A stretch of 64,000 nt of DNA from Patescibacteria group bacterium (GTDB lineage Bacteria; Patescibacteriota; Microgenomatia; PFEM01; JBHPGO01). The DNA lies in contig JBHPGO010000001.1 in assembly GCA_042570465.1 (NCBI GenBank), forward strand, positions 1,656 to 65,655, in the 5' to 3' direction. Below, piece by piece: positions 3,026-54,507 of this stretch. A model generated the notes under the pieces. That model was not told where the DNA came from, made no database searches, and saw only the letters and a program-made list of their open reading frames with translations. The first letter of the stretch is position 1; each line of letters begins with the position of its first letter. The position numbers were made by a program, and so were the translations under genes.

Positions 3026-3039
3026 CCGAAGCAATAAAT

Positions 3040-20654: not shown

Positions 20655-20726
20655 TGATTTTTTAGATAGTTTTCCAGTCTTCTTTTTAAATATCCTCTGC
20701 CAAACCCAGTTTTTAATTGTTTTTCT

Positions 20727-20889
20727 CGTCTTCACCTTGCCCGACAAAAGGTTCGAGACTTCGACCGCATTTAGTCGGGTCCGCCAAATTGCGTTCTGCA
20801 GTACAGAACCTTTTGGCGTGAGAAGGGTGATGTTGAGCCACCCCGCCGAAAAGCTTCGCATTTTTGCGGGCAGGTCAACTAATCCTGCT
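20727..20889 (-). pseudogene. 5'-portion copy of tRNA-Gly(TCC) interrupted by a ~34-nt insert in the D-loop and a ~85-nt insert in the anticodon loop
   Basis: The sequence matches the tRNA 5' half (including the ctgattttt flank) once the insertions are removed. Confidence 0.55.
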
Positions 20890-20956
20890 GATTTTTCAAA
20901 TATTAGAATTTATATTCAAGCCAGATTCGCAGTAATTTAATACTATTTTATCAAAA

Positions 20957-21724
20957 TTGACCTCTTTGATCAATGACTGTATAGTTAGGGAAATGGCTAA
21001 GAAAATCAACGTTATCAAGCACGGTGGCTCTTCTGAACTATACGATCGGCAAAAAGTTTTGCAGTCAATCCTTCGTTCTCAAGTCAACGATCATCAAGCT
21101 CAGGAAATTTTATCCAGAGTTGAAAAAAGGCTTCATGATGGGATCAGCACAAAGAGTCTTTACCAAATCGTTAACCGGGAAATTGTTCGTCAGGATCTTC
21201 CCCACTGCTCTGATCTTTACCGACTCAGAGAAGCAGTGGCGACGATGGATTCAATTGATTTTGAAAAATTTGTCAAAGAAATTTTGACCAAAGAGGGCTT
21301 TGAAGCTCAGTGGAATTTGATATTAAACGGTTTATGCATTGACCATCAGATCGATGTCGTGGCTAAAAATAAGAATGGCCAGGTTTATTACGTGGAGGTT
21401 AAACACCACCGCCATTACCACCGTGATACAGGCTTGGGAACCGTAATTGAGCTTTGGGGTCGCTACAAAGACTTGATGGATGGCTACCATAAAAGTCGTC
21501 AACCTTATGATTTTGCTTCGGCATGGCTGATCACCAACACCAAGTTTTCCCGACACGCAAAGAAGTTTTCGGCATGCAAAAACTTAAGATTAACCGGCTG
21601 GCATTATTTTTTAAAGGAAAAAGGACAGGAAAGTAAGAATGGTTTGGAAAAAGAGTTTGAAAGCTTAGGGGTGGACCAGGTTAGCCTCCTGGTGAAAAAA
21701 GTAATTGAGGGAAGTTTATCGTAA
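20957..21724 (+). CDS. ATP-cone domain fused to Mrr-like (PD-(D/E)xK) restriction endonuclease domain
   Basis: N-terminal INVIKHGGSSELYDRQKVLQSI..STKSLYQIVNREI is ATP-cone-like. The central FEKFVKEILTKEGFEA..IDHQIDVVAKNKNGQVYYVEVKH matches the Mrr_cat D...D/E-x-K core. Confidence 0.5.
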   Translation: MTSLINDCIVREMAKKINVIKHGGSSELYDRQKVLQSILRSQVNDHQAQEILSRVEKRLHDGISTKSLYQIVNREIVRQDLPHCSDLYRLREAVATMDSIDFEKFVKEILTKEGFEAQWNLILNGLCIDHQIDVVAKNKNGQVYYVEVKHHRHYHRDTGLGTVIELWGRYKDLMDGYHKSRQPYDFASAWLITNTKFSRHAKKFSACKNLRLTGWHYFLKEKGQESKNGLEKEFESLGVDQVSLLVKKVIEGSLS

Positions 21725-24184: not shown

Positions 24185-24336
24185 TAAGGTTATTGTTTTT
24201 ACACTAAAAGATATTTTCCATGGGAAATAGTTTATTCAGAGACATTTAATACACTAAATAAGGCGAGAGGGCGAGAAAGATATTTAAAATCATTTGCTGG
24301 CAGGAAGTGGATGAAGAAATTTGTTTTTAAAAACTA
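24185..24336 (+). pseudogene. degenerate 3' remnant of a GIY-YIG gene copy
   Basis: The sequence acactaaaagata..ccatgggaaatagtttattcag...gtttttaaaaactag aligns to the 3' ends of the two intact copies. Confidence 0.5.
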
Positions 24337-24417
24337 GCCGAGGTGGCGAAATTGGCCCGCCTCGACTCGCGGAGATAAATATTCGAGTCGACGCGAGGCG
24401 GGCAGACGCGAAACAAA
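24337..24417 (+). repeat. tRNA-Leu(TAA) 5' fragment (gccgaggtggcgaaattggc) + 46-nt GC-rich palindrome + cagacgcgaa, copy 1
   Basis: Identical to tRNA positions 1–20 and 21–30 at 24989, with the insertion ccgcctcgactcgcggagataaatattcgagtcgacgcgaggcggg between them. Confidence 0.65.
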
Positions 24418-24663
24418 ATGTATTTTGTTTATCTGCTTAAAAGCAAGAAACATAATAAAAGCTATGTAGGAATGACTAAAGATTTGGAAATAAGACTTAG
24501 GCGACATAATCAAGGGTATTATAATTACACTAAAAGATACTTGCCATGGGAAATAGTTTATTCAGAAAAAATTGATACATTGGAGAATGCGACCAAGCGT
24601 GAGAAGTATCTTAAATCAGCAGCTGGTCGGAAATGGTTGAAAAGAGTTGTTTTTAAAAACTAG
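24418..24663 (+). CDS. GIY-YIG nuclease family protein (short YhbQ/Slx1-N-like, 81 aa)
   Basis: YFVYLLKS..YVGMT.DLE.RL..HN motif; the stop codon abuts the tRNA 5'-fragment repeat. Confidence 0.65.
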   Translation: MYFVYLLKSKKHNKSYVGMTKDLEIRLRRHNQGYYNYTKRYLPWEIVYSEKIDTLENATKREKYLKSAAGRKWLKRVVFKN

Positions 24664-24743
24664 CCGAGGTGGCGAAATTGGCCCGCCTCGACTCGCGGAG
24701 ATAAATATTCGAGTCGACGCGAGGCGGGCAGACGCGAAACAAA
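24663..24743 (+). repeat. tRNA-Leu(TAA) 5' fragment + GC palindrome, copy 2 (326-bp tandem unit)
   Basis: Exact repeat of 24337–24417. Confidence 0.65.
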
Positions 24744-24989
24744 ATGTATTTTGTTTATCTGCTTAAAAGCAAGAAACATAATAAAAGCTATGTAGGAATG
24801 ACTAAAGATTTGGAAATAAGACTTAGGCGACATAATCAAGGGTATTATAATTACACTAAAAGATACTTGCCATGGGAAATAGTTTATTCAGAAAAAATTG
24901 ATACATTGGAGAATGCGACCAAGCGTGAGAAGTATCTTAAATCAGCAGCTGGTCGGAAATGGTTGAAAAGAGTTGTTTTTAAAAACTAG
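24744..24989 (+). CDS. GIY-YIG nuclease family protein, identical second copy
   Basis: Identical 81-aa translation to 24418..24663. Confidence 0.65.
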   Translation: MYFVYLLKSKKHNKSYVGMTKDLEIRLRRHNQGYYNYTKRYLPWEIVYSEKIDTLENATKREKYLKSAAGRKWLKRVVFKN

Positions 24990-25072
24990 CCGAGGTGGCG
25001 AAATTGGCAGACGCGAAGGACTTAAAATCCTTTGGTGGCAACACCGTGTGGGTTCGACTCCCTCCCTCGGCA
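24989..25072 (+). tRNA. tRNA-Leu(TAA), long variable arm
   Basis: Acceptor GCCGAGG/CCTCGGC, D-arm GCGAAATTGGCAGACGC, anticodon stem AAGGA/TCCTT with loop CTTAAAA, T-loop TTCGACT, discriminator A. Confidence 0.75.
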
Positions 25073-25236
25073 CTTCTGCTAAGCAGAATATCTCATGGGA
25101 GGTAGAGTCGAACCCATTGAGAACCAAGCTACGAATAAGTAAGGTGCTTTGGAAATAAATTTAACAAGGTTGATTGAAATAAAACGGAATGGACACTCCG
25201 ACTCCCTGCCTGCCGGCAGGCAGGCCTCCCTCGGCA
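25073..25236 (+). repeat. 164-bp tandem unit 1 ending in a copy of the tRNA-Leu 3' end split by a 20-nt perfect palindrome (gcctgccggcaggcaggcct)
   Basis: The unit ends ...cgactccct[gcctgccggcaggcaggcct]ccctcggca. The same palindrome occurs at 1160–1179. Confidence 0.65.
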
Positions 25237-25400
25237 CTTCTGCTAAGCAGAATATCTCATGGGAGGTAGAGTCGAACCCATTGAGAACCAAGCTACGAAT
25301 AAGTAAGGTGCTTTGGAAATAAATTTAACAAGGTTGATTGAAATAAAACGGAATGGACACTCCGACTCCCTGCCTGCCGGCAGGCAGGCCTCCCTCGGCA
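25237..25400 (+). repeat. 164-bp tandem unit 2
   Basis: Near-exact repeat of 25073–25236. Confidence 0.65.
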
Positions 25401-25495
25401 CCCTTCGACTACGCTCAGGGTAAACTTCCTGCAAAGCAGGTTGCCTGCATTGACACCATAGGTGTGCAGAAGGTATACTTTGGATAAATATAAAA

Positions 25496-33374: not shown

Positions 33375-34211
33375 ATGTTTGTTTTTGACAGCCGAGATAT
33401 TGCCCTAGAAAGGAATAAAGAGCTCGCCAAAAAAATCGAGACTTTGAAAAAAAATTCCTCGTTTAAACCGGTGCTGGAAACAATTCTGATTGGTGAGAAG
33501 ACTTCTTCCAGGCAATTCTTTGAGGCTCTTAAGGCAGTGGCTCTCGAAGTTGGTGTTTTGTATCACCAAAATAATCTTTCGGCCAATATTAGTCTTGCCA
33601 AAATATCTTCTCTGGTTGAGGGTCTTAATGAAAACCCACAAGTCAATGGCATTGTTTTAGCTCTCCCGGTCCCCTCCCGAATTGCCATCAATAACAATCA
33701 GCCTCTTCAAGACAAGATTTTACCCTCTAAAGATATTGATTGCTTGACGACCGAGAATCTAAGTAAGCTTGAAGAGGGTCAAGAAGTTTTTGTGCCTCCA
33801 GTGGTCAAGGCAGTTTTGGGTGTTTTGCCAATGCTGGGCAACTATCGCCAGAAAAAAATTGTTGTTGTCGGAGCCACTGGCCGGGTTGGTCGGTCTTTAG
33901 TAATTCAGTTGAAGAAACTTGGCTTAAGTCCAGGGTTGGTCGATGAACACACCAAAAATTTGGTTCAGAAAACAAAAGCGGCCGAAATATTAATTTCCGC
34001 CACCGGACAAGCCGGACTGATTAAGGAAGAAATGGTTAAAAAAGGGGCGGCAATCATTGATTTAGGCTCTCCTCAAGGAGATATTGACTTTAATAGTGTC
34101 AGTAAAAAAGCAGCTTGGCTTTCCCCTGTTCCCGGAGGCATTGGCCCTCTCACTCTTATCTGCCTGCTCGAAAACCTTTTTAAAGTCACTTTCACACCCG
34201 ATGTGAAATAG
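33375..34211 (+). CDS. folD: bifunctional methylenetetrahydrofolate dehydrogenase/cyclohydrolase
   Basis: VVVGATGRVGRSL and the C-terminal PVPGGIGPLT motif; adjacent to glyA. Confidence 0.75.
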   Translation: MFVFDSRDIALERNKELAKKIETLKKNSSFKPVLETILIGEKTSSRQFFEALKAVALEVGVLYHQNNLSANISLAKISSLVEGLNENPQVNGIVLALPVPSRIAINNNQPLQDKILPSKDIDCLTTENLSKLEEGQEVFVPPVVKAVLGVLPMLGNYRQKKIVVVGATGRVGRSLVIQLKKLGLSPGLVDEHTKNLVQKTKAAEILISATGQAGLIKEEMVKKGAAIIDLGSPQGDIDFNSVSKKAAWLSPVPGGIGPLTLICLLENLFKVTFTPDVK

Positions 34212-34228
34212 GTTCCCTACATCGGGAG
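34193..34228. repeat. REP-like palindrome
   Basis: cacacccgatgtgaaataggttccctacatcgggag. Confidence 0.6.
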
Positions 34229-34250
34229 ATTGATTCGGATGGCGAGTATT

Positions 34251-34291
34251 TATCCCGATGTGCAAGGGGTAAGGCACATCAGGTGTATCGG
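34251..34291. repeat. REP-like palindrome (inverted orientation)
   Basis: atcccgatgtgcaaggggtaaggcacatcaggtgtatcgg. Confidence 0.55.
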
Positions 34292-36473: not shown

Positions 36474-36667
36474 AATTTGTTGAATAAACGCTTTTAAAAT
36501 GGAGACGATTCAAAAGAGGGGAAGATACGAATACCTAAACCAAGTAAACCGACTCAAATCAGTATTTACCACTGATCAATCTTTAAAGCTAACAAAAAGA
36601 ATTTTAACACGTTTGATTATCTTTGTCAAACTATAGGTTGTTTACTTCGGGGCGTTTTGGTCTAGCT

Positions 36668-36735
36668 GGGGAGCGTGGACACCTGCCCGCCAGTTGCTGC
36701 GCCGCCAGGCGCTGGCAGGCGGGGAGTTCGAACCT
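36668..36735 (-). pseudogene. tRNA 3'-end-like fragment (GGTTCGAACTCCCC...CGCTCCCCA) split by a ~45-nt GC-rich insert
   Basis: Followed by the same 22-mer (gctagaccaaaacgccccgaa) that follows tRNA-Gln at 39746. Confidence 0.4.
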
Positions 36736-36786
36736 TTTTTATGACAAATTTTATTGAAATTCCCATTTTTAATTATAGTTTCTAAT

Positions 36787-37569
36787 TTAAGATATTTCCT
36801 TTGTTAAAAACTCATAAAAATTATCCTTTGCGTATTTTTCATACCATGGGTGATGTCCACATCTTTTTATCAAAATTAATCGGAAGTTCTTTATTGTCTC
36901 TGCTAGAGGTTTTTTTATTCCCTCGGCTGGATGTGGGTCATAGTCTCCATGAATCGCAACAACAGGGCATCTAATTTGTTTTCCTAAAGCAAGAAGCTTC
37001 CCTTCTTCCCTGAGTTTACTAGCCTCATCCCAAACAGGCTCATATATTTCTGGCTGTGTTTTTGTTACTTCACTTTTGTGCGGAATTGAACTATAAGAAT
37101 CAGCCTTATCTATAAGTTTGCCAATTTTGCTAAATGCCTTTTCTTGCTTTTTACCTTTCAAATTATTCAGACTAGTAAATAATGAGTCCAATTCGTCTCT
37201 TTCTTCTTTAGATAACCTACTCATTCTGGTTTTCATTATTCGTTTTGCATATCTGGCTTCAAATGGTCCACTGCTCACAAGAATAAGTTTCTTAACTAAC
37301 TTAGGATATTTAGCGGTTAAGATGTAACTTAACCAAGCACCCCATGACCAACCAATAAGTACGACTGGGTGTTTTGCATTATTTTCAATTACTAGTTTTA
37401 GTTCTTGAACTTGCCCATCAACAGAGTTTTCAGTTTGAATCGGTTCTAACACTCCGCACTCTTTAGATAAGTGTCTAGCAACTGGGGCCATTTCTCCAGG
37501 CGCACCAGGGCCACCGTGGATTGCAACTATATTAAAAGGAGGCTTCCCGTATGTTCTTAAATTTTTCAT
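36787..37569 (-). CDS. alpha/beta-fold hydrolase
   Basis: GWSWG nucleophile elbow and HGGPG oxyanion region; 260 aa. Confidence 0.6.
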   Translation of the reverse strand: MKNLRTYGKPPFNIVAIHGGPGAPGEMAPVARHLSKECGVLEPIQTENSVDGQVQELKLVIENNAKHPVVLIGWSWGAWLSYILTAKYPKLVKKLILVSSGPFEARYAKRIMKTRMSRLSKEERDELDSLFTSLNNLKGKKQEKAFSKIGKLIDKADSYSSIPHKSEVTKTQPEIYEPVWDEASKLREEGKLLALGKQIRCPVVAIHGDYDPHPAEGIKKPLAETIKNFRLILIKRCGHHPWYEKYAKDNFYEFLTKEIS

Positions 37570-37624
37570 AGTATTAGTTATTTGAAGTATAACAAAAGTT
37601 TTGAAATCCGGAGAAATCCGAAGA

Positions 37625-37735
37625 TGTGCTGCGGGGCCAGGACTCCCCGAAAAACTCTTACTTCGCGCCGGAGGCTTCCAGCCTCGCGCTCGCGAAGAGC
37701 GAGTATCGGGGCAGGCGAAGAGGTCCGAAGTTTAT
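37625..37735 (-). pseudogene. tRNA-Gln-like 3'-end fragment with ~85-nt GC-rich insert after T-loop TTCG
   Basis: gctgcggggccaggactc matches the tRNA-Gln 3' end (39767–39785); about 90% identical to 39527–39640. Confidence 0.5.
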
Positions 37736-37962
37736 GCTTAGCTCATTCCTCTCCAAATTAATTCCCAAATATTTGTTCTTGAAACTTGTTGGTTTGTGGG
37801 TACTAGGGGTTTTCACCCGTCCACACCTGCAAAATTTTGGGGCCTTGAGCCCCAGAATTTTGCTGAGCAGGCCGGTCTAGGACCTTTCGGGCCCATAACC
37901 AATTACTCCGAGTGTACCACTTTGAGGCTAAATAAGACAAATGAGACACTATAAAAAAGAGG

Positions 37963-38865
37963 TCAATCTAGTTGTATATTTTCGTCACGAAGATTTGAGT
38001 AGTAAGCTTTTCTTATAAACATGGGGTCATAATGAATCGAAGATTTGCCGGTGGTGGCGTAATTATATAGCGCAGTAACATAAATACTCTGTAGGTTGTG
38101 AAAAAACACTGCCACTCCAACAAAATAAAATATTATCAAAGAAAATATCAAGGAATCTGTAAGCATATTAGTTGTATTCGAACCAATAATTCCTCCAATA
38201 AACACAAAAGGGAAAGCGGCAAACCATAAAATGACAAAAATTAACCTCATTGAAAATTGACCAGTCAAAGATTTTCCCCAAGTTTTATTAAATAATTCGC
38301 CTGATTTTTTTATTGACTCCTTTATAGTCAAATCATTAAAAATCATCACGGGTATGATAAAAAAATTTATCAAACTCCAGCTAACAAGACTTACGGATCC
38401 AAATATTTTGAATATCACCCTTTCGTTTTTAAAGATCGTTCTAAAAATGAAAACAACCGTTCCGGAAAGTAAAGACCATATAAATATTTCCCCAATGTGT
38501 TTTTGGGCCTTACTAAAACCATCCCTAAAGGTGGGATTTCCGCCGTCAAGTCTGATATTAACGCAAGTCATTAGCCCTGCCTTAAAAAAAGTCGTAATAA
38601 AAGAACTTAAAATATAGAATAACAAGGTAGAAATTAAAAAAAGAGGGATAAAGCCATACATATAAGGCTGAAAACTTGCCTGGTTTTCCACACCCCCTGC
38701 TTTTAAATTAACAATAAACAGATAAAATGGACCCAGGAAACAAACAACCAATGCCAATATATTCAAAAACAAAGAAAATAGTGAGAACCAGATTAATTCC
38801 TTATCTTTCTTAAGTATTGCAAAACTTTGCGATAATAATTGAAAACTAGACCTTACCGGTGACAT
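37963..38865 (-). CDS. polytopic membrane protein
   Basis: Six or more hydrophobic helices; 300 aa. Confidence 0.4.
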   Translation of the reverse strand: MSPVRSSFQLLSQSFAILKKDKELIWFSLFSLFLNILALVVCFLGPFYLFIVNLKAGGVENQASFQPYMYGFIPLFLISTLLFYILSSFITTFFKAGLMTCVNIRLDGGNPTFRDGFSKAQKHIGEIFIWSLLSGTVVFIFRTIFKNERVIFKIFGSVSLVSWSLINFFIIPVMIFNDLTIKESIKKSGELFNKTWGKSLTGQFSMRLIFVILWFAAFPFVFIGGIIGSNTTNMLTDSLIFSLIIFYFVGVAVFFHNLQSIYVTALYNYATTGKSSIHYDPMFIRKAYYSNLRDENIQLD

Positions 38866-38945
38866 TAAATCAACTTCTTGTAAAACTTTATAATGATCTA
38901 ACAGTTAAAGCATTATAACTGTATACAATATTTCAAGATCATAAA

Positions 38946-39440
38946 CTAATCAGTACCTAAATGGTTTTTAAAATATTCTAAAATCTTCCCTTTATTGTAC
39001 CAATCATCAATAATTGGTTTTTCAATTGGCAAAAGAAAAAGTAATCGCTTATCCCAAAGCTTAATCGCCTTGCCGCTATCAAAAAGAACGATTTCAGGAA
39101 TTCCGGGACAATTTTTCCCAAGATATTTATTATCCTTTTCTGAATTAATAATTTTTTTATAAAAACTAAGTTTATAGTGGTTTTCCTTGGCGATATCTTC
39201 AAAGATTGCAGTTATGTTGCAACAAAAATCATATGCCCCTCCGCAGAAAACCACCATGGCTAAACTATCAGCGTTGAGAACCTCATTTTTAAAACTATCG
39301 TCATCAATCTTTTTAACCCATTGACTGTCTTTAGCCCACCACTTATTGCAATTACCCTTTCTAATTTTACTAATTACCAATAGGCCCGAAAGGGCTACCA
39401 GTAAAATAATGATTACGACTAGCCCCTTCTTATTAGTCAT
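38946..39440 (-). CDS. membrane-anchored hypothetical protein (possible thioredoxin-like fold)
   Basis: N-terminal TM; Cys cluster VVFCGGAYDFCC. Weak. Confidence 0.3.
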   Translation of the reverse strand: MTNKKGLVVIIILLVALSGLLVISKIRKGNCNKWWAKDSQWVKKIDDDSFKNEVLNADSLAMVVFCGGAYDFCCNITAIFEDIAKENHYKLSFYKKIINSEKDNKYLGKNCPGIPEIVLFDSGKAIKLWDKRLLFLLPIEKPIIDDWYNKGKILEYFKNHLGTD

Positions 39441-39526
39441 GCCAATCTGCTTCTTATTCTAACATAAATAAGTCTGCTATAGATTTATTAAAAAGTTGCG
39501 TCTCGGTCGGTTGAGGTGCCCGTTCT

Positions 39527-39640
39527 GGCTGCGGGGCAGGGATTCCCCGAAAAACTCTTACTTCGCGCCGGAGGCTTCCAGCCTCGCGCTCACGAAGGGC
39601 GAATATCGGGGCAAGCGATGAGGGTCCAGGCCTCCATATT
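39527..39640 (-). pseudogene. tRNA-Gln 3'-end fragment with GC-rich insert (second copy)
   Basis: Minus-strand reading GACCCTCATCGC...TTTTTCGGGGAATCCCTGCCCCGCAGCC. Confidence 0.5.
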
Positions 39641-39766
39641 TTGTTCGTAGCTTTCTATTCGTTTCTTAATACGGATTCATCTTGTTTGAAAGTCAAGTGG
39701 AGTTGCAGGTTCAAGTCCCCACAAGCTAGACACAAAAACACCCCTTTCGGGGCGTTTTGGTCTAGC

Positions 39767-39835
39767 TGCGGGGCCAGGACTCGAACCTGGATTAATGCCT
39801 TCAAAGGGCACGGTCCTACCATTAGACGACCCCGC
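39767..39835 (-). tRNA. tRNA-Gln(TTG)
   Basis: Acceptor GCGGGGT/GCCCCGC, anticodon stem GTGCC/GGCAT with loop CTTTGAA, T-arm CCAGG-TTCGAGT-CCTGG; the D-arm is short. Confidence 0.65.
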
Positions 39836-39892
39836 AATAAATAATTCACAATTTACAATTACCAATTTTCATATAGGCACGCTAACGCGTGC

Positions 39893-40035
39893 CTCATTTG
39901 GAGCGAGGGACGGGGGTCGGAGGGTCCGAAACAATTTATTTCCTCGAAACCCCTGAACTTAATCCCCCTATCTCTAACTTAATTTGAAAGGTACTCTCAA
40001 CGCGGGTTCTCGCCCAGTCCCACGCAAAATCTTAC
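39893..40035 (-). repeat. ~143-bp tandem unit containing a tRNA-Gly(GCC) 3'-end copy preceded by GGACCCTCC
   Basis: ggagcgagggacgggggtcggagggtccgaaac... is identical to 40036–40182. Confidence 0.65.
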
Positions 40036-40182
40036 AAATATGGAGCGAGGGACGGGGGTCGGAGGGTCCGAAACAATTTATTTCCTCGAAACCCCTGAAC
40101 TTAATCCCCCTATCTCTAACTTAATTTGAAAGGTACTCTCAACGCGGGTTCTCGCCCAGTCCCACGCAAAATCTTACAAATA
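40036..40182 (-). repeat. second tandem unit (tRNA-Gly(GCC) 3'-end copy)
   Basis: Exact repeat; it abuts the genuine tRNA. Confidence 0.65.
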
Positions 40183-40258
40183 TGGAGCGAGGGACGGGGG
40201 TCGAACCCGCGACCTTCTCGTTGGCAACGAGATGTTCTGCCAGCTGAACTACCCTCGC
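40183..40258 (-). tRNA. tRNA-Gly(GCC), CCA encoded
   Basis: Acceptor GCGAGGG/CCCTCGC, D-arm GTTC-AGCTGGCA-GAAC, anticodon stem TCTCG/CGAGA with loop TTGCCAA, T-arm GCGGG-TTCGACC-CCCGT. Confidence 0.8.
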
Positions 40259-40500
40259 GTATTAGTAATGTTTTGGCTTATTTGTCTAACGTAGGTTCTC
40301 CTCTTAGAACAGATTGATTGATTTTTTCATGTAATTCTCTCGAATCCCGGACAGTTAAGGTTGCTTGCCTTCTTGCCATTTCAGGAGACATTCCTGAGGT
40401 CGTAAATTGATTTGTCAAGTGGTCTCTGAATTTTCGATCTACTCCACAAATAATAATAGATGTTTCCATTTTTAATCCTCCCTTCTTTCAATATTCACTG

Positions 40501-40573
40501 TGCCAGGGAGCAGAATCGAACTGCTATCTCATGTTTTTCAGACACGCGCCGTGACCACCTTGGCTACCCTGGC
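40501..40573 (-). tRNA. tRNA-Phe(GAA)
   Basis: Acceptor GCCAGGG/CCCTGGC, anticodon stem CGTGT/ACATG with loop CTGAAAA, T-arm AGCAG-TTCGATT-CTGCT. Confidence 0.75.
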
Positions 40574-40820
40574 AAACATTTATTAATCTCCTCATTTCGA
40601 CATTACCTTTGCCCGTGTTTTTAAAATACCACTCTCTCTTAAATGCCTCACTTTTATTAGTATACTCTTCGAAATATATTAGTTTTAAGGGTTTTCGATA
40701 CTTTGTTGATTTGTTTTTGCCTTGGTTATGTTCTTCTAGTCTGTTTTCTAAATTATTGGTTGCTCCGATATATAGATTACTGTCTTTTTTACTTTTCAAA
40801 ACATAGACATAAAATTTCAT
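40524..40820 (-). CDS. GIY-YIG nuclease family protein (YhbQ-like); the nominal reading frame runs into the tRNA-Phe gene
   Basis: MKFYVYVLKSKKDSNLYIGATNNLENRLEEHNQGK; the upstream in-frame extension to 40910 is a tRNA-Phe 5' fragment and not coding. Confidence 0.55.
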   Translation of the reverse strand: MKFYVYVLKSKKDSNLYIGATNNLENRLEEHNQGKNKSTKYRKPLKLIYFEEYTNKSEAFKREWYFKNTGKGNVEMRRLINVCQGSQGGHGACLKNMR

Positions 40821-40827
40821 AAAATTT

Positions 40828-40895
40828 GTGACCACCCCCGAGGGGGCCCTTTCAGGGTCCTGATAGGACGCCTTCGGCGCTTGGCTACCCTGGCA
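40828..40895 (-). repeat. tRNA-Phe 5' fragment (GCCAGGGTAGCCAAG...GTGGTCAC) split by a ~45-nt GC-rich hairpin insert in the D-loop
   Basis: Compared with 40546–40573; the insert is cgccgaaggcgtcctatcaggaccctgaaagggccccctcgggg. Confidence 0.55.
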
Positions 40896-41019
40896 GTTAG
40901 TCTTGGGCAATAAGATTTTAACAAAAAATGACTAAGATAACAATAATCTTGACCTAAGTATAGAATTATTCACTTGACAGAAGATAGTCGGGCTGATAAA
41001 TTTAATTAAGGAAAAAACT

Positions 41020-41829
41020 ATGGCTGATGATGAAAAAAAACTGAGCGAGGAAGAAGAAAAAAAAGAGGAAGAAAGCAAGGAAGAAAAGCCTGAAGAAGTG
41101 GAGTCTATGGAAGAAACTAAGGAAAAAGAAAAGCCCGTTGAAGAAGTTACTGAAAAAAAGTCAGAGGAATCTGATTCTGAATCTAAAACAGGGCAAAGCT
41201 TGACTGAAGAAGGAGAGGCAAAAGAAAGCTCTTCTGATGAGACTGAAGAGACGGCTGAATATTCAAGCGAATTAATTGTCGACGAAGCTTCATCTGGGAA
41301 AAAGAGCTTCTTTAGTAAAAAACTTCTTTTAATTGTTTTACTCGTGGCAGCCACTGTTTCTTTGATCACCGGAGGTATATTAGTCTACCGAAAAGCAATC
41401 AATAAGCAAGAAAACAAGGCCTCTGTGACAGAGATTGAAAGTAGTCCGACCCCACTTCCAGCCACGGCTGACGCGGCCTCACCTTCGGCCAAATTAAAGA
41501 GAGACGAGTTAAAAGTTCAAGTGCTTAATGGCTCCGGAGTTCCAGGTGCCGCCGGGGTTGGTCAGGAATTTCTTGAAAGCCTTGGTTACCAAGAAGTAGA
41601 AACAGGTAATGCTGATAATTATGACTTTGAAGATTCAGTTGTTTCGCTAAACGAAGAAAACAAGGAATTATTTGCTGAAATTAAAAAAGATTTATCTGAA
41701 AAGTATTCGGTGGGTGAAAAAGCAGAAGTTCTGGAAGAATCCAGTGAATATGATCTTGTCATCACCCTAGGTCAAGAGCTGGAAGAGGCTGAGACTGAAG
41801 AGGAAGAAGCAGAGGCAGAAGAAGAATAA
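41020..41829 (+). CDS. acidic membrane-anchored LytR_C (LytR C-terminal) domain protein
   Basis: TM LLLIVLLVAATVSLITGGILV; LKVQVLNGSGVPGAAGVGQEFLESLGY matches LytR_C. Confidence 0.5.
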   Translation: MADDEKKLSEEEEKKEEESKEEKPEEVESMEETKEKEKPVEEVTEKKSEESDSESKTGQSLTEEGEAKESSSDETEETAEYSSELIVDEASSGKKSFFSKKLLLIVLLVAATVSLITGGILVYRKAINKQENKASVTEIESSPTPLPATADAASPSAKLKRDELKVQVLNGSGVPGAAGVGQEFLESLGYQEVETGNADNYDFEDSVVSLNEENKELFAEIKKDLSEKYSVGEKAEVLEESSEYDLVITLGQELEEAETEEEEAEAEEE

Positions 41830-41848
41830 ACATTCCTAAAAATTACTC

Positions 41849-42121
41849 CTATTTTCTTGGATTATCGTCTTTGGTTGTGCCGTACCAGGTATACAGGTCA
41901 GCAGCATGCTCATCAATTTTCCTCAATTCTTCGACAATCTTCATTCGAACAATGAATGAGGAAACAACGGGTTGATCTCTTTCTTCAATCCAAGAAGCAA
42001 CAGTTTCTGCCAATGAATCCGCTTGCTCTGGAGCCAAACCAGCTGATTGTGCGACTTTAGAGACTTTCTTGGGATCAAAGTCTTCGACTACCCCATCTCT
42101 TCTAATGACTTTAATATTCAT
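41849..42121 (-). CDS. stand-alone ATP-cone domain protein (~90 aa)
   Basis: MNIKVIRRDGVVEDFDPKKVSKVAQSAG. The ORF-track extension to 42259 overlaps tRNA-Val and is rejected. Confidence 0.5.
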   Translation of the reverse strand: MNIKVIRRDGVVEDFDPKKVSKVAQSAGLAPEQADSLAETVASWIEERDQPVVSSFIVRMKIVEELRKIDEHAADLYTWYGTTKDDNPRK

Positions 42122-42146
42122 ATTTATTGTTTTAATAAGCCTCCAG

Positions 42147-42220
42147 TGGGTCCACCAGGAGTCGAACCTGGAACCTTTGCGATGTAAACGCAACGCTCTA
42201 GCCAGTTGAGCTATGGACCC
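42147..42220 (-). tRNA. tRNA-Val(TAC)
   Basis: Acceptor GGGTCCA/TGGACCC, anticodon stem TTGCG/CGCAA with loop TTTACAT, T-arm CCAGG-TTCGACT-CCTGG. Confidence 0.8.
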
Positions 42221-42346
42221 AGACCACTTGATTTTATCTAAGAACCAGTGTTTTTGCAACTATTGCCATTATTCATCGTTGCTCATGATTGGCACCTGGC
42301 TTTAGTTTTTTAATGATTGGAATTTAGCGTATTTTTGGAAAATTCC

Positions 42347-42412
42347 AGGGGTGTCAACCCGTCTCGACTCGGGTCGATCCGAGGCGGACCTAAGTCACCC
42401 CGGGGGTGGACG
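42347..42412. repeat. palindromic 23-mer (ggggtgtcaacc..taagtcacccc) interrupted by an H2 GC-rich insert
   Basis: The same 23-mer occurs at 19641 and 20398; the insert cgtctcgactcgggtcgatccgaggcggacc matches 3106 and 8396. Confidence 0.55.
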
Positions 42413-42438
42413 TGGTGCAAGAGAAATATATATAATAG

Positions 42439-42521
42439 TGCGCTCGGTGGGACTCGAACCCACACGCCCCGAAGAGCATAGGTCCTCAACCTATTGCGTA
42501 TGCCAATTCCGCCACGAGCGC
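42439..42521 (-). tRNA. tRNA-Leu(GAG)
   Basis: Acceptor GCGCTCG/CGAGCGC, anticodon stem ATAGG/CCTAT with loop TTGAGGA, long variable arm, T-loop TTCGAGT. Confidence 0.75.
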
Positions 42522-42607
42522 AAATATCAGCTAATTTTCAGTTAAATCTTACCAAATTTTAAGGCTCTTGGCTAGACATGTAAAAGAATTTCAAATAAAA
42601 TATCATT

Positions 42608-43390
42608 GTGAATATCAATCAAAAACCAACTGTTTCAGTCGTAATTTGTGCTTATAATGAGGAAAAATATCTTGGCCAAACCATTTCTTCAGCCCTGAAA
42701 TGCCCCACGGCCGAAGAAATTATCGTCGTCAATGACGGTTCGACTGACAAGACAAAAAATGTGCTTAAATCCTTCAAGGATAAGATAATCAGCGTTTCCT
42801 ATAAAAAGAATAAAGGTAAAGGATATGCTTTTTCAAAAGGAATAAAAGCCGCCAATGGGCAGATCATAGTCATGCTTGACGCTGATTTAAAAAATCTTCA
42901 AGAAAAGCACCTTAAGAAAATGGTCAAGCCGATTTTAAAAAGAGAAACAAACTTTGTTCTTGTTCAGTTACACAAAAAAAACTTGCTTTTATCCTTAACT
43001 GGTCAAAGAGCCTACTTAAAAGAACTTCTAGTTCCCTACCTTTCTATAATTAAAAATTCTCGTTACGGGCTGGAAACATATTTAAATGATATTTACAAAA
43101 TAAGATGGGGGAAAACTGTTAAACTCAGTGACCTAGGACACTACTTAACAACTGAAAAAACATCGGGCAATGAAGTTATCAATAAATACATTCAAGAAAT
43201 TATTGAAATTTCAAAATCCAGAGCCGAAATTCAGCTTAGGAAATATAAAACTCTCAAAAAATTACTTAATCGTAAAGAAATTAAATCTCTCCGTTCTTTG
43301 CACAAGACGCTTAATGAAATCAAAGATAAGGAAATCTCCGAACTTGCAGATACCTACTTTATTCCCTATCTTAAAAAGAACCTCAGGTAA
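42608..43390 (+). CDS. family 2 glycosyltransferase (Dpm1/DPG-synthase-like)
   Basis: VSVVICAYNEEKYL...VVNDGSTDKT...LDAD. Confidence 0.7.
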   Translation: MNINQKPTVSVVICAYNEEKYLGQTISSALKCPTAEEIIVVNDGSTDKTKNVLKSFKDKIISVSYKKNKGKGYAFSKGIKAANGQIIVMLDADLKNLQEKHLKKMVKPILKRETNFVLVQLHKKNLLLSLTGQRAYLKELLVPYLSIIKNSRYGLETYLNDIYKIRWGKTVKLSDLGHYLTTEKTSGNEVINKYIQEIIEISKSRAEIQLRKYKTLKKLLNRKEIKSLRSLHKTLNEIKDKEISELADTYFIPYLKKNLR

Positions 43391-43525
43391 ATTTTGTGAA
43401 AGTCAGTTTCTTAAGACCATTATTTGAAAACAGCTAGTATATTTTCTATACTGAAGACAATAACAACTTCATATTTTATACAATCAACTGGTCATTGATT
43501 TGAAGGTTGGGGGGAAAAACAGGAT

Positions 43526-44797
43526 ATGATTAGAAGATTATTGATTCTCTTTTCTCTTTTTGGAATAATCTTTTTATTAGCTTTAAGTTCAAGTTTTCCA
43601 AAAACAAACCTCTTTGTTAAAGAAATTGAAGCCTCCTCGGTATTAAGTTTTCCTGAAGATCACTCAGAGCACCCCACCTTTAATGCTGAATGGTGGTACC
43701 TCAACCTGCTTACCCGAACATTAAAAACTGACGGAACTGACCAAAGAGATTTGGCATATGTATTGTCATTTTCACGAATTCTGGGTTCCAATAATTTGCT
43801 TAGTAGTAGGTATGATGATGTCTCAAAATCCTTCGGAGAAAATACCGAACAAAATGGCAGCTTAGTAGTTCAACTATTGGACGGTAATCGGTTATTTGTT
43901 CAATTTAGTAAAAACCTTGAGATCTCCACTTTAGAGGAATTACCCACAGGAATTGACAGGAAAAGAGTTTATCATCTAGCAGGGAGGACGGCTGATATGG
44001 GAGTTTTTGACCTCACGCTCAAAGAAAGATCAGTTGTTTCTTCAGGCTTTAACTCTCCGCTTCTTTGGGGAGGAACAACTGGTAATTGCCAGGGAAGAAT
44101 TTCAGTTTTTTCCCAAGACGATACATATTATTACAGCGTTCCTGATCTTGATATCTCGGGAACAATTACAGAAAATGACGGAACTGAAAGAAATGTATTA
44201 ATCGGTAAGGCTTGGATTGACCATCAATGGTTTAATAGTGGACCGCCAACAGATTGGCTGGGACACTATTGGACCAATCTTCATTTTACTCACTCAACCA
44301 GCTTGTATAGCCCCGGACCACATCAGGCCTTTGGGTATGTAACCCAAATATATAATGATGGTCCTCGATACTCTTATTGGGTAAAAAGAAATACTGATGG
44401 AACAAATGAGTGCGGAAGCGATGGAACGATGATTATCAACAGCTTTGGTTCCACCGACTATCCAAATTTTTGGACCGTTAACAACGGAATTCTTAGGGCA
44501 AATGGATATTCCTTTTCAGATAATCAAATTTACCAACCCCCGACTGGACCAAGCTTTATTGAAGCAGCTTCGTTTTATTCAGGGACACTGAGTGGAACGC
44601 CTTTTACTGGCTTAGGCTTCTTTGAAACCCATCTTATGTTAGGAGACTTTAATGGTGACGGCGAGATCAATAGTTTTGAGGTAAAGTTACTTTTGTCTCA
44701 CTGGACTCAGTTAGATTTACCAAGTTACGATTTAGTAGAAGATAACAAAATTAATGTCCTTGACCTTTCGACAATAATTAATCTATGGAAACCTTGA
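43526..44797 (+). CDS. secreted AttH/CrtC-like (lipocalin-like) domain protein with C-terminal dockerin
   Basis: Signal peptide; FPEDHSEHPTFNAEWWYLNLL matches the AttH family N-terminus. The C-terminal DFNGDGEINSFEVKLLLSHW...DLVEDNKINVLDLSTIINLW is a dockerin pair. Confidence 0.5.
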   Translation: MIRRLLILFSLFGIIFLLALSSSFPKTNLFVKEIEASSVLSFPEDHSEHPTFNAEWWYLNLLTRTLKTDGTDQRDLAYVLSFSRILGSNNLLSSRYDDVSKSFGENTEQNGSLVVQLLDGNRLFVQFSKNLEISTLEELPTGIDRKRVYHLAGRTADMGVFDLTLKERSVVSSGFNSPLLWGGTTGNCQGRISVFSQDDTYYYSVPDLDISGTITENDGTERNVLIGKAWIDHQWFNSGPPTDWLGHYWTNLHFTHSTSLYSPGPHQAFGYVTQIYNDGPRYSYWVKRNTDGTNECGSDGTMIINSFGSTDYPNFWTVNNGILRANGYSFSDNQIYQPPTGPSFIEAASFYSGTLSGTPFTGLGFFETHLMLGDFNGDGEINSFEVKLLLSHWTQLDLPSYDLVEDNKINVLDLSTIINLWKP

Positions 44798-44870
44798 CTT
44801 ATGATTGTCTGCCTTGGGAACTCATTGAAGTCTGTTAAAACCCACCTAAAACTAAGCTGTTTCGAGAATT

Positions 44871-45188
44871 TTAGTAGGTCCTTTTTATCCTAGAAGGAGT
44901 CATTTCTCTTTTGACAGGTTCACCATTGAGTGTGCAGCCCTCAAGGTCCTTTCTCCCATTTAATGTTCCTGCAGCTTGCAAAATATTCTTACCCAGACCT
45001 AGGGCAATTTCATCTCTTTCTGCAAGTAAGGCACGATTATCTTCAAGGGTAATCGTACCCCCACCCTTTTTTTCGAACCTTATCCTTGTTCTCACAAGCG
45101 CCGCAGTAGAATTGTCTACCAACCAATTCGCATATGTATTAAAGTCAACTTTTTTGACCCTTGCTTCATTATTCTTTACTCTTTCCAT
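44871..45188 (-). CDS. hypothetical protein (105 aa)
   Basis: An ORF with no other support; the antisense ORF 44911..45228 was judged less likely. Confidence 0.3.
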   Translation of the reverse strand: MERVKNNEARVKKVDFNTYANWLVDNSTAALVRTRIRFEKKGGGTITLEDNRALLAERDEIALGLGKNILQAAGTLNGRKDLEGCTLNGEPVKREMTPSRIKRTY

Positions 45189-45454
45189 CTCAGCATCTTC
45201 TCCTTTTTATAATTTAATTTATTTATAAATAAAATTAAAATAGCCTGTTTGTTCAGTATTATAGCAATTTTCTACAAAATCTACAAGTTTTTGGTCTTTA
45301 GTTGATTAACAAATAAGCAATGAAAAAGTTGTATTTATTCAAGTCTTTTGTTCACTTCTGAGGGTTTCTCGTTTCTCCACAAGTAAATTCTGTTTTGCAG
45401 AAGTGCCCTAGGGGAGAGTCGTCACGCACCAGAGTCCGGCGAAGCCGGACACGA

Positions 45455-45560
45455 AGCATGACACCCTATACCGTGTTTGCTGAAGGCGAATTCTGGTATA
45501 CGGGCGAACCCACATGGATTTGCATCCACACAGTCCTGAACTCCGCCAAAGGCGGACAGG
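45455..45560 (-). pseudogene. internal copy of tRNA-Leu(CAG) (anticodon arm to T-loop TTCG) with a 20-nt hairpin insert in the anticodon stem
   Basis: Minus-strand reading CACG[cctgtccgcctttggcggag]TTCAGGACTGTGTGGATGCAAATCCATGTGGGTTCG, then diverges. Confidence 0.55.
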
Positions 45561-45584
45561 CGTGCGCTTGTACCTCCAAATAAG

Positions 45585-45668
45585 TGCCGATGGTGGGAGT
45601 CGAACCCACATGGATTTGCATCCACACAGTCCTGAACCGTGCGCGTCTGCCAATTCCGCCACATCGGC
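45585..45668 (-). tRNA. tRNA-Leu(CAG)
   Basis: Acceptor GCCGATG/CATCGGC, D-arm GCGG-AATTGGCAGA-CGC, anticodon stem CACGG/CTGTG with loop TTCAGGA, long variable arm, T-loop TTCGACT. Confidence 0.75.
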
Positions 45669-45790
45669 ATATTTTGGTCTGTCTGCCCGCCTCGCGTCGA
45701 TGAGCGACACGAGTCGAGGCGGGCCCGCCTCGCGTCGACTCGAATATTTATTTCCGCGAGTCGAGGCGGGCCAATTCCAGCACCAGGGGC
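45669..45790 (-). repeat. tRNA-Leu D-arm fragment (ggaattggc) followed by two tandem ~46-nt GC-rich palindromes (H1 family), then cagac, immediately 5' of tRNA-Leu(CAG)
   Basis: cccgcctcgactcgcggaaataaatattcgagtcgacgcgaggcggg is near-identical to the insert at 24356 and 24682. Confidence 0.6.
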
Positions 45791-53752: not shown

Positions 53753-53789
53753 TCACACCCGATGTGATTCTCTATTTGCACATCGGGAG
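53753..53789. repeat. REP-like palindrome upstream of the Y1 transposase
   Basis: tcacacccgatgtgattctctatttgcacatcgggag. Confidence 0.6.
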
Positions 53790-53829: not shown

Positions 53830-54507
53830 ATGCCAATAAGAGAAACTCCCTTGATAAATAACGAAATCTATCATTTATTCAATCGAGGTGTTGACAGTTG
53901 TCCGACCTTTTTGACCTCTGTAGATTACCGGCGTTTTCTAAAAACAATCAATTTTTATCGATACTTTCCTCTTCCTGTCAGGTTAAGCCAATTTCTGGAT
54001 TACTCTATTAAAGAAAAAGAAAATATTTTGAATGACTTAGCCAGTAGCATGAAGGATCAGGTCTCAATATTATCTTTTTGCCTTATGCCCAATCACTACC
54101 ATATTCTTGCAAGACAGATAAAAGATAACGGCATTTCAAACTTTTTAAGGCTGGTTCAAAACAGCTACACAAAATACTTTAATATTAAAAAAGAAAGAAT
54201 CGGACCGTTGTTCCAGGGTCCTTTTAAAGTTGTCAGGGTAGAAACTGACGAACAACTAATCCATCTCTCCAGATACATCCACCTTAATCCCTATTCTTCA
54301 TATGTGGTCAAATCAATTGAGGATCTGGTAAAATATCCCTGGTCTTCTTTCACAAATTATCTTGGGAAAAATAGCCATCAATTTGTAAATAAACGATTTG
54401 TATTAGGAATGTTTAAAAGCAAAAGAGAATATCAAAATTTTGTGTTTAACCAAGCAGATTACCAAAGACAATTTGAGATTATTAAACATCTAGCCTGGGA
54501 ACATTAG
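53830..54507 (+). mobile_element. IS200/IS605-like HuH Y1 transposase (RAYT-like), 225 aa
   Basis: LMPNHYHILAR HuH motif and downstream Tyr-containing helix; flanked by inverted REP copies. Confidence 0.6.

Follow-up and report, generated by a model that had tools for sequence, protein, structure and literature searches.

Transfer RNA (tRNA) genes are classic landing sites for mobile DNA and are used as such by integrases, by group I introns and by a few phage homing endonucleases. The present work concerns a stretch of 64,000 nucleotides (nt) from a Patescibacteria group bacterium (assembly GCA_042570465.1, contig JBHPGO010000001.1, positions 1,656 to 65,655), which is called the window and whose own numbering is used throughout. 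In this window six tRNA genes are accompanied by partial copies of themselves split by GC-rich palindromes, and a gene for a GIY-YIG nuclease of about 80 amino acids (aa) lies beside some of them. We consider it fairly probable that the partial copies are the footprints of mobile, homing-type selfish cassettes built around this small gene next to tRNA genes. The module formed by a small GIY-YIG gene, a tRNA gene and a hairpin-split copy of that tRNA is undescribed in the literature searched, subscription journals lying outside the scope of that search, and the family of selfish elements is apparently both widespread and undescribed.

The nearest published analogue of the module is SegB in the tRNA cluster of phage T4. 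SegB is reported to be a site-specific endonuclease of the phage tRNA cluster which promotes the inheritance of its own gene and of the flanking tRNA region (PMC2330249). As in the present family, a GIY-YIG nuclease gene is found among tRNA genes, and co-conversion of the flanks could yield mosaic tRNAs. Seg proteins are larger, carry DNA-binding domains and act between co-infecting phages, and we know of no partial tRNA duplications or companion palindromes in Seg systems, whereas the present family is made of cellular proteins of ~80 aa that are closer to UPF0213 and SLX1 than to the I-TevI-type enzymes. With the UPF0213 (YazA/YhbQ type) and SLX1 proteins they share a single-domain GIY-YIG core with the conserved Tyr, Tyr-x-Gly, Arg, His and Glu, but the tRNA-linked clade carries an invariant C-terminal tail of its own, REKYLKSAAGRRW, and no tRNA linkage, pseudo-tRNA copies or companion hairpins are reported for UPF0213 proteins in the literature searched.

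Integrase islands and cis-mobilisable elements at tRNA 3' ends resemble the present loci in that the tRNA is restored by the part carried on the element, in their direct 3'-end repeats and in their tandem accretion; indeed, tRNA fragments left by integrated elements are a known annotation problem (bioRxiv 10.1101/2022.07.05.498093). In the present loci, by contrast, no recombinase was found, the 5' end is duplicated as often as the 3' end, conserved hairpins interrupt the repeats and unit length goes down to 129 nt. Imperfect GC-rich palindromes that occur in both orientations and keep their ends and a bulge while the loop varies are likewise seen in repetitive extragenic palindromes (REPs) with their REP-associated tyrosine transposases (RAYTs), in the subterminal hairpins of IS200/IS605 elements and in the mobile GC clusters of yeast mitochondria. 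REP families are short palindromes linked to a dedicated small nuclease or transposase gene (PMC3733652), but the partner here is a GIY-YIG hydrolase and not an HUH/Y1 transposase, and the palindromes are concentrated in redundant tRNA copies instead of being spread between genes. Finally, the disrupted tRNA genes of archaea (split, permuted or multi-intron) have been linked to element integration (PMC3293823), and they too are broken at defined positions, including loops, and tied to mobile DNA. There, however, the pieces are reassembled into a functional tRNA, whereas here the split copy, always accompanied by an intact one, appears to be dead. Archaeal-type split tRNAs and functional tRNAs with introns were rejected as candidates for the split copies because of this intact copy.

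Nine tRNA genes were found in the window, on which ARAGORN and Rfam agree. When each tRNA was compared with the window by blastn-short, partial self-copies were obtained for Gly(TCC), Leu(TAA), Gln(TTG), Gly(GCC), Phe(GAA) and Leu(CAG), and none for tRNA-Pro, -Val and -Leu(GAG). The copies are exact segments of 13-37 nt, colinear with the parent tRNA and separated by inserts, and the best segment at each locus reaches E values from 3e-16 to 3e-3. This confirms the original prediction that six of the nine tRNA genes have adjoining partial self-copies with GC-rich D- and T-loop inserts, at coordinates which agree with ours, except that the range given for the pattern, 36668-45790, holds only four of the six loci. 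Its view that a site-specific, systematic process and not random duplication is at work also holds, since the window and dozens of unrelated genomes share their preferred insert sites, which in the 5' half follow raw positions 7, 9, 11, 18-19 and 22 and in the T-loop lie at C56|G57. With Rfam 15 nothing reached the gathering score beyond the nine tRNAs, and a permissive scan of 20000-46000 gave chance-level matches only.

The cassette always stands between two copies of the same tRNA, of which one is intact and functional and the other is truncated on the side facing the open reading frame (ORF) and split by one or several GC-rich palindromes of a conserved, bulged type. These palindromes (CCCGCC...GGCGGG) prefer the end of the D-loop, positions 7-12 and the T-loop site C56|G57. 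Two arrangements can be distinguished. In form 1 a 5' pseudo-copy with its hairpin is followed by the ORF and then by the intact tRNA; in the window this form is represented two and a half times at Leu(TAA), and once each at Phe, at Gly(TCC), where the ORF is decayed, and at Leu(CAG), where it is lost. In form 2 the intact tRNA comes first, followed by the ORF and by a 3' pseudo-copy with its hairpin, and the 3' units found in the window at Gly(TCC), Gly(GCC), Leu(TAA), Gln and Leu(CAG) lack an ORF but share its T-loop break site.

The Leu(TAA) locus, on the forward strand, displays form 1 most completely. It is built from a 326-bp tandem unit consisting of an 81-aa ORF and of tRNA positions 1-29 with a 46-nt palindrome, H1, in the D-loop, and it reads from left to right as a diverged truncated ORF, a pseudo-copy, an ORF, a second pseudo-copy, a second ORF and the intact tRNA. 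The truncated ORF (24200-24337) covers residues 33-81 with 69% identity to the intact copies by tblastn. Pseudo-copy 1 (24337-24420) comprises positions 1-20, H1 (24357-24402), positions 21-29 and the ORF leader, and is identical to pseudo-copy 2 (24663-24746; H1 at 24683-24728). The two intact GIY-YIG genes, 24418-24663 and 24744-24989, are also identical and encode 81 aa (PF01541, E=6.7e-16); the product of the first is identical to NCBI protein P0001, annotated 'GIY-YIG nuclease family protein [Patescibacteria group bacterium]'. In each ORF of the array the stop codon overlaps position 1 of a tRNA copy: the TAG of the first gene overlaps the second pseudo-copy, and the second gene abuts the intact tRNA-Leu(TAA) (24989-25073; ARAGORN, Rfam).

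At tRNA-Phe, on the reverse strand, the 5' pseudo-copy (40828-40894) is made of positions 1-15/16, a 44-nt insert of four GC mini-hairpins (40836-40879) and positions 17-23. It is followed by a GIY-YIG gene of a divergent type with a core of 82 aa (40575-40820; PF01541, E=1.1e-19), the ORF of which extends into the intact tRNA-Phe(GAA) gene (40500-40573; ARAGORN, Rfam). The original prediction had recognised this nuclease gene but placed it at tRNA-Phe only, thereby missing the further copies at Leu(TAA), the remnant upstream of tRNA-Gly(TCC) and the link of the gene to the overall pattern. At Gly(TCC), also on the reverse strand, the 5' pseudo-copy (20727-20893) spans positions -8 to 47 and is interrupted twice: its D-loop holds a GC insert of 35 nt (20840-20874), its anticodon loop a double hairpin of 83 nt (20739-20821). 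The 72-nt spacer (20655-20726) between it and the intact tRNA-Gly(TCC) (20583-20654; ARAGORN, Rfam) holds a putative C-terminal GIY-YIG ORF remnant, RGYLKRRLENYLKNQ, to which family members gave 92 weak tblastn matches over residues 60-80, the best with E=0.096; taken alone, these hint weakly that the spacer may be a decayed GIY-YIG ORF.

The encoded proteins form a single-domain family of 79-90 aa with the GIY-YIG domain at residues 1-70, and the PF01541 matches of the Leu-type and Phe-type ORFs both exceed the gathering score. Across 26 members no variation is seen at Y16, G18, R26, H30, N31 and E62, and hardly any at Y5. The closest solved structures are those of UPF0213 proteins (PDB 1ywl, EF2693, and 1zg2, BH0048) and of the structure-specific endonuclease SLX1, with E values from 8e-10 to 2e-3. 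The NCBIfam model for group I intron endonucleases matches the first ~36 residues only and far below its cut-off, the match to the UvrC model is likewise limited to the N-terminal motif, and PADLOC and PHROGs gave only weak generic nuclease matches. A profile search of 1.84 billion representatives returned 7,206 clusters at 50% identity (E<=1e-10). Only four relatives were found in 2.9 million viral contigs, all near contig ends; hence, phages are not the main home of the family.

Homologues of the window protein occur in the candidate phyla radiation (CPR), in Bacteroidota and in a few other groups. In the first four distinct loci examined (Pacebacteria, two other CPR and a Leeuwenhoekiella-like flavobacterium of the Flavobacteriaceae), the ORF ends no more than ~10 nt from an intact same-strand tRNA or overlaps it, and in all four a hairpin-split 5' copy of the adjoining tRNA, of the CCCGCC...GGCGGG form, precedes the ORF. 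A scan of one genome per species then yielded 247 relatives, of which the best 80 loci were kept. A same-strand tRNA starts between -40 and +60 nt from the end of the protein match in 51 of the 80, chance adjacency being of the order of 0.1% on a rough estimate, and the tRNAs concerned are of the Gln, Leu, Ala, Arg, Met, Asn, Thr, Ile, Val and Cys types. Among these 51 loci, 48 have a 5' pseudo-copy, and 45 of the 48 pseudo-copies are interrupted by one or more GC-rich inserts, which have a median of 32 nt and 70% G+C and begin with CCCGCC in 35 of 50 cases. The mirror form, with an intact same-strand tRNA just upstream of the ORF, accounts for 11 of the 80 loci, the tRNA lies 84-950 nt downstream in another 8, and most others are cut by contig ends. 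In the mirror form the ORF is followed by a 3' copy of the upstream tRNA, often with its terminator duplicated too; in Glu and Leu loci a hairpin splits this copy exactly at GGTTC|GA, the T-loop site C56|G57, while in two Ala loci the hairpin occupies the D-loop.

The same architecture is present in the cultured isolates Leeuwenhoekiella blandensis MED217, L. palythoae DSM 19859 and Arenibacter troitsensis DSM 19835. This bears on the identical tandem repeats of the window, which could be attributed to mis-assembly given that the contig comes from a metagenome-assembled genome (MAG) and that its two 326-bp units, like its two 164-bp units at Leu(TAA), are identical. Since the architecture recurs in many independent assemblies including those isolates, an assembly artefact is excluded for the architecture, although not for the copy number, and as an account of the repeats it retains next to no credibility.

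Some fetched loci depart from the simple arrangement. In a Minisyncoccia MAG (L046:1740-2010) the tRNA-Asn(GTT) downstream of the GIY-YIG module is interrupted in the anticodon loop by a sequence containing GGTTCAGAGACTATC, which presumably recalls the conserved core of group I introns. Elsewhere, four tandem CCTGCCCGAC-type hairpins lie between positions 7 and 10 of a tRNA-Arg(CCT) pseudo-copy (L081:1370-1500), and repeated T-loop-split 3' copies of Leu(CAA) occur with long hairpins on either side of the ORF (L050:1300-2000).

The palindromes themselves form a recognisable family. The arm motif CCGCCTCG was observed 12 times in the window against 0.47 expected, and within the fetched loci the ORF flanks hold perfect GC-rich hairpins at 14 times the density of the remaining sequence. 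When folding was compared with shuffled controls, 6 of 10 inserts gave z scores from -2.3 to -5.5, and the Phe, Gly(TCC) D-loop, Gln and distal Gln inserts were indistinguishable from the shuffles. CPR hairpins have the ends CCCGCCTCGACTCG ... CGACGCGAGGCGGG and those of Bacteroidota the ends CCCGCCCG[AACG]TACC ... GGTACGGGCGGG; both types keep their ends and an asymmetric bulge but vary in the loop. Moreover, both orientations are found at the same tRNA site in roughly equal numbers. Together, these features argue for a DNA-level element with ends resembling terminal inverted repeats (TIRs) and against a strand-specific RNA structure. The idea of a miniature palindromic element with a preference for tRNAs is in this way partly supported, by the conserved insert family, its TIR-like ends, its two orientations and its enrichment beside the nuclease gene. 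Target-site duplication by staggered cuts was considered and rejected, as no consistent duplication is seen at the hairpin boundaries.

The question of an RNA function arises here, because the split tRNA fragment lies in the presumed 5' untranslated region of the nuclease mRNA in form 1 and in the presumed 3' one in form 2, with the hairpin flanked by tRNA-identical sequence. The fragment could then be a structured leader or trailer serving to stabilise or regulate that mRNA, or a guide-like RNA steering the nuclease to tRNA genes, and both the switching of tRNA targets within protein clades, as if specificity were not encoded by the protein, and the lack of a DNA-binding domain would fit. We regard this as very improbable: the two orientations are about equally frequent relative to the transcript, no Rfam family matches, multiple or nested hairpins and ORF-less copies would be unexpected for a leader, and an RNA-guided GIY-YIG nuclease was not found in the literature searched, nor is one known to us.

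Alternatively, the hairpins could be generic palindromes of the REP type or of the miniature inverted-repeat transposable element (MITE) type, moved by a Y1 transposase or generated by slippage, which gather in neutral duplicated tRNA sequence, the GIY-YIG gene being a passenger on the tRNA promoter. The window does hold a Y1_Tnp ORF (53830-54507) with an adjoining GC palindrome family, both orientations occur as expected of DNA palindromes, and the inserts are not confined to tRNA contexts, CCGCCTCG-type arms being found outside tRNA copies at a few sites (3123, 8466, 23427 and 42380). However, the palindromes adjoining the Y1 ORF belong to another family, CCCGATGTG...CACATCGGG, and neutral accumulation does not readily account for a hairpin in 45 of 48 pseudo-copies, for the enrichment at the ORF flanks or for the non-random insert positions. 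Furthermore, the hairpin type follows the GIY-YIG clade across hosts, and the association holds in phyla as distant as CPR and Bacteroidota. Indeed, loci with the Bacteroidota-type hairpin include ones assigned to one Scalindua and one Peribacteria MAG, which suggests that the hairpin type travels with the module across hosts, contamination of these MAGs being possible. An origin as generic palindromes is accordingly rated as quite improbable.

Other palindromes of the window can be mentioned beside these. The Y1 ORF (forward strand, 225 aa, IS200-like domain PF01797) is the sole Y1_Tnp ORF found in the window, and the separate GC palindrome family that precedes it, CACACCCGATGTG...CACATCGGGA, occupies four sites, among them 53754-53788, 34193-34284 and 10743-10777; ORF and palindrome may be a pair of the REP/RAYT kind within a CPR genome. 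A terminator-like palindrome, CCACCCC.GGGGTGACTTAGGT...TGACACCCCTGG, is found downstream of tRNA-Leu(GAG) and tRNA-Gly(TCC) (42340-42420 and 20400-20450, reverse strand) and also at 3100-3160. The copy at Leu(GAG) holds a nested CCGCCTCG-type palindrome in its loop, which shows that such palindromes also insert in hairpin loops outside tRNA copies.

The 3' units of the window carry no nuclease gene. Downstream of Gly(TCC), Gly(GCC), Leu(TAA) and Gln, exact tRNA 3' fragments of 13-21 nt are joined to bodies of ~110 nt that are mutually homologous (TCGAACCC..ACTTTCAAAcTAA...GGACCCTC|CGA); thus, one non-coding element family sits in the T-loop of four different tRNAs, and each of its copies combines a tRNA-specific direct 3' copy with a degenerate inverted one. 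At Leu(TAA) two identical 164-nt units (25074-25401, forward strand) consist of a degenerate inverted T-arm copy, the ~110-nt body, GGACACTC and the tRNA 3' fragment, the latter, from T-loop to 3' end, being split by the palindrome GCCTGCCGGCAGGCAGGC at 25208-25225 and 25372-25389. The remaining units lie on the reverse strand. The Gly(TCC) unit (20449-20581) has a 109-nt body ending in TTTCGGACCCTC, followed by positions 54-72 and a 5-nt trailer. Two 142-nt units (39899-40182) follow the intact tRNA-Gly(GCC) (40183-40258; CCA encoded; ARAGORN, Rfam), each composed of a degenerate repeat of the tRNA 3' end in inverse orientation, a body, TTTCGGACCCTC and 21 nt that reproduce the tRNA 3' end exactly.

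The intact tRNA-Gln(TTG) (39765-39836; ARAGORN, Rfam) has a terminator-like trailer at 39746-39764 and beyond. Its unit 1 (39528-39764) contains the trailer, a body homologous to those of the other 3' units, GGACCCTC, a GC hairpin of ~80 nt (39546-39627) and the tRNA 3' fragment (39528-39545). Unit 2 (37628-37800), with 92% identity to unit 1 over 96 nt, contains a partial body, GGACCTC, a hairpin (37646-37726) and an exact 18-nt fragment (37628-37645), and two cargo ORFs (thioredoxin-like and DUF6159) lie between the two units. A distal Gln-type fragment had also been proposed, and one is present at 36645-36734, made of GGTTCGAACTCCCC, a GC-rich insert, an acceptor strand and the 19-nt trailer of the intact gene; its acceptor, GCTCCCCAGC, is unlike that of the intact tRNA-Gln and belongs to a different tRNA-Gln allele, whereas the trailer is common to both. 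The Gln fragments were also considered as a tmRNA or tRNA-like 3' domain, for which ARAGORN and Rfam were negative.

According to the original prediction, every 3' fragment breaks after TTCG and continues with GACC(C/T)TC. This is the case for Gly(TCC), for both Gly(GCC) units and for both Gln units, but not for the leucine loci, as the Leu(TAA) 3' copies have no TTCG before GGACACTC, and at Leu(CAG) the break does follow TTCG but the insert begins with CCCGTATACC. The position is best expressed as C56|G57, and it is also the T-loop position of the mirror-form hairpins. ORF-less 3' fragments are frequent in the fetched loci as well, where they lie 82-168 nt downstream of the tRNA; overall, 17 of 86 tRNAs have a downstream 3' fragment. 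In our reading, the ORF-less 3' units of the window may be non-autonomous or decayed relatives of the mirror form. A further occurrence of the junction motif, GGACCCTC-TCAAATCCCT-[GCCTGCCGGCAGGCAGG]-TCC at 1140-1185, carries a palindrome as in the Leu(TAA) 3' fragments, and no tRNA lies close by; possible origins are a tRNA locus since lost, of which it would be a relic, and the transposition of a unit end.

These units also lend themselves to another reading, in which the 3' fragments are attR-type repeats of small integrase-borne or cis-mobilisable elements accreted in tandem, and the 5' GIY-YIG modules are unrelated to them. Like typical att cores, the fragments begin in the T-loop and stop precisely at the tRNA 3' end, the units are in tandem, the tRNA-Gln repeats bracket cargo genes (thioredoxin-like, DUF6159 and a hydrolase), and one body sequence is common to units at four different tRNAs; in addition, ordinary tRNA-Leu fragments lie kilobases from the gene in unrelated metagenome loci (L099). 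However, a Pfam search covering ~40 of the 63 window ORFs of at least 100 aa found no tyrosine or serine recombinase, and the units, at 129-164 nt, are far below the size of integrative elements. Moreover, mirror-form GIY-YIG loci of other phyla have their hairpin at this very C56|G57 break, and the 5' fragments, the hairpins within repeats and the inverted copy of the tRNA end at the start of the units would be left unexplained. Integrase-like recombination at the T-loop, one of the mechanisms offered with the original prediction, therefore finds no recombinase in the ORFs searched and meets a pattern in which half of the copies are 5' fragments, and we think it unlikely.

The Leu(CAG) locus, on the reverse strand, shows the replacement of a resident tRNA gene. 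The intact tRNA-Leu(CAG) (45584-45668) lies inside an older gene as a simple insertion at 25|26, its positions 32-68 being identical to the outer pseudo-gene. The 5' part of the older gene (45669-45790) covers positions 1-25, contains two H1-type D-loop palindromes (45724-45769 and 45686-45723) and is followed by a 12-nt linker ending in ..AAAATAT(G) directly before the intact tRNA, the ORF being gone. The 3' part (45403-45583) covers positions 26-85 after a 16-nt linker, with a 19-nt hairpin at 45542-45560 and an 84-nt double hairpin at 45421-45504 after the T-loop TTCG. The two flank fragments join without overlap or gap (…CAGAC|GCGCACG…) into one complete older gene, the 3' end of which equals that of the orthologue in another Patescibacteria MAG (L015) at 17 of 18 positions. 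The acceptor stem and T-arm of the intact inner tRNA resemble those of the window's Leu(TAA). Given these Leu(TAA)-like ends and a middle shared with the old gene, the working tRNA-Leu(CAG) gene is a mosaic that has replaced the resident gene and lies within its remains.

The comparison with L015 further reveals that modules are present or absent at corresponding tRNAs of related genomes. Both have the tRNA order Leu(CAG)-Leu(GAG)-Val-Phe-Gly(GCC)-Gln; L015 has a module at Leu(GAG) and none at Phe, with Val and Phe 15 nt apart, and in the window the reverse is found. The array from Leu(CAG) to Gln occupies 1.1 kb in L015 (1308-2415) versus 5.9 kb in the window (39765-45668), where genes for a glycosyltransferase, a CrtC/dockerin-like protein, an ATP-cone protein, LytR_C and a ~65-aa ORF stand between the tRNAs; the window's tRNA array is an insertion hotspot.

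Comparable signs are also seen elsewhere. Within the window, the distal Gln-type fragment is one case, its acceptor being different and its trailer shared. In one locus (L005) the acceptor of the pseudo-copy differs from that of the intact tRNA. In another (L014:1730-1900) the tRNA-Gln after the GIY-YIG gene has a mismatched acceptor stem (5' TGGGAGG, 3' ...CCGGCAG) and received no ARAGORN call, and a second 5' pseudo-copy lies between ORF and tRNA; this tRNA-Gln has the appearance of a conversion product, either failed or chimeric. Compared with the intact tRNA, identity reaches 97% in the outer flank of the hairpins and 78% in the inner one, and in the protein tree both the tRNA target and the form change within clades. 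Judged from their sequences, the mosaic Leu(CAG), the chimeric acceptor of L014 and the divergent pseudo-copy acceptor of L005 are compatible with co-conversion of flanks, without amounting to proof of it.

A homing-type cassette, the reading which we favour, would operate as follows. The nuclease would cut a tRNA gene, and repair of the break would copy the cassette from a module-bearing donor, with conserved tRNA sequence serving as homology arms. As the tRNA would be the only sequence common to unrelated genomes, the module would need tRNA sequence on both sides, and since the cassette would have to rebuild the displaced part of the tRNA, a redundant partial copy would be left behind. The tandem arrays of Leu(TAA), Gly(GCC) and other loci could arise by unequal crossover, or if the element cut its own tRNA and the adjacent pseudo-copy served as repair template, and co-conversion could yield mosaic or replaced tRNA genes. 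The hairpin, standing at the end of the target homology, would be a cis-element of the cassette, probably recognised by a nuclease of this structure-specific type; it might block cleavage or recombination in the redundant copy, serve as the recognition site, or both. With the hairpin in place, most deletions of the ORF would leave behind a hairpin-split, dead tRNA.

Several points weigh against such cassettes. No cleavage activity or target site of the ~80-aa protein is on record, and a protein of this length has no separate DNA-binding domain, unlike the characterised GIY-YIG homing endonucleases (I-TevI, Seg). The intact tRNA beside the ORF keeps any tRNA-internal target, which leaves self-immunity unexplained. 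The tRNA linkage figures cover the 80 loci chosen as the closest relatives of the window protein, and the metagenome scan gave no filled and empty pair of closely related strains; indeed, a 26-mer from the variable and T arms of tRNA-Leu(TAA) found 33 loci in metagenome contigs, all from unrelated organisms and none with a GIY-YIG gene. As for the 3' units of the window, tblastn detected no convincing ORF remnant in them, weak plus-strand matches in the Gly(GCC) units being judged spurious, and their junction motif (GGACCCTC, or TTCGGACCYTC) had no match in 125 fetched loci. This variant is thus lineage-specific, and the tie of the 3' units to the GIY-YIG family comes down to the common T-loop break position. 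Finally, GC palindromes also occupy non-tRNA sites of the window, nested in other palindromes, and the window's Y1 transposase could move palindromes.

A bolder version of homing can be put forward more tentatively. The modules would then form a very large, hitherto overlooked cross-phylum selfish class, in which a minimal SLX1/UPF0213-like nuclease with a bulged hairpin as its cis-site invades D- and T-loops and replaces the resident tRNA by a version that the element brings along or rebuilds; the hairpin would disable the old copy and so make the host dependent on the tRNA of the element. Such a structure-guided homing with 'gene replacement addiction', distinct from protein-guided homing endonucleases, integrases and HUH transposases, is part of the same conjecture and is to our mind possible, but doubtful.

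What recurs from CPR to the Flavobacteriaceae is in any case a compact three-part module, made of a tiny GIY-YIG gene, a partial duplicate of the target tRNA and a bulged palindrome, in a family of thousands of clusters. If it is mobile as proposed, the module would account for many 'pseudo-tRNA' fragments and for many small proteins annotated as 'GIY-YIG nuclease family protein', telling annotators what hairpin-split tRNA fragments are. It would also provide a route for the horizontal replacement and mosaicism of tRNA genes, a function for part of the uncharacterised UPF0213 branch, and a small nuclease with a DNA-hairpin partner whose specificity rules are directly testable.

Apart from the tRNA loci, the window has ~40% G+C and its gene content is that of ordinary bacterial housekeeping. 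Pfam matches include enolase, phosphoglycerate mutase, PPDK, subunits of pyruvate:ferredoxin oxidoreductase and triosephosphate isomerase, and glyA, folD, lexA, secG, an RND pump and a DEAD-box helicase were assigned from the translations of the window alone. Two ATP-cone ORFs, at 20957-21724 (forward strand) and 41849-42145 (reverse strand), adjoin the tRNA loci Gly(TCC) and Val respectively, and one of the two is fused to an Mrr-like restriction endonuclease domain. The first 13 kb hold six copies of a repeat family of 45-130 nt, …GCTTTTATGAGGCTAAAATAGGTTCTAACT…CACGAGATTATATTAATTTTTCGTGGTTGAGTC…, which is unrelated to the tRNA loci (51-140, 912-1001, 2898-3026, 11236-11330, 12633-12703 and 13065-13126).

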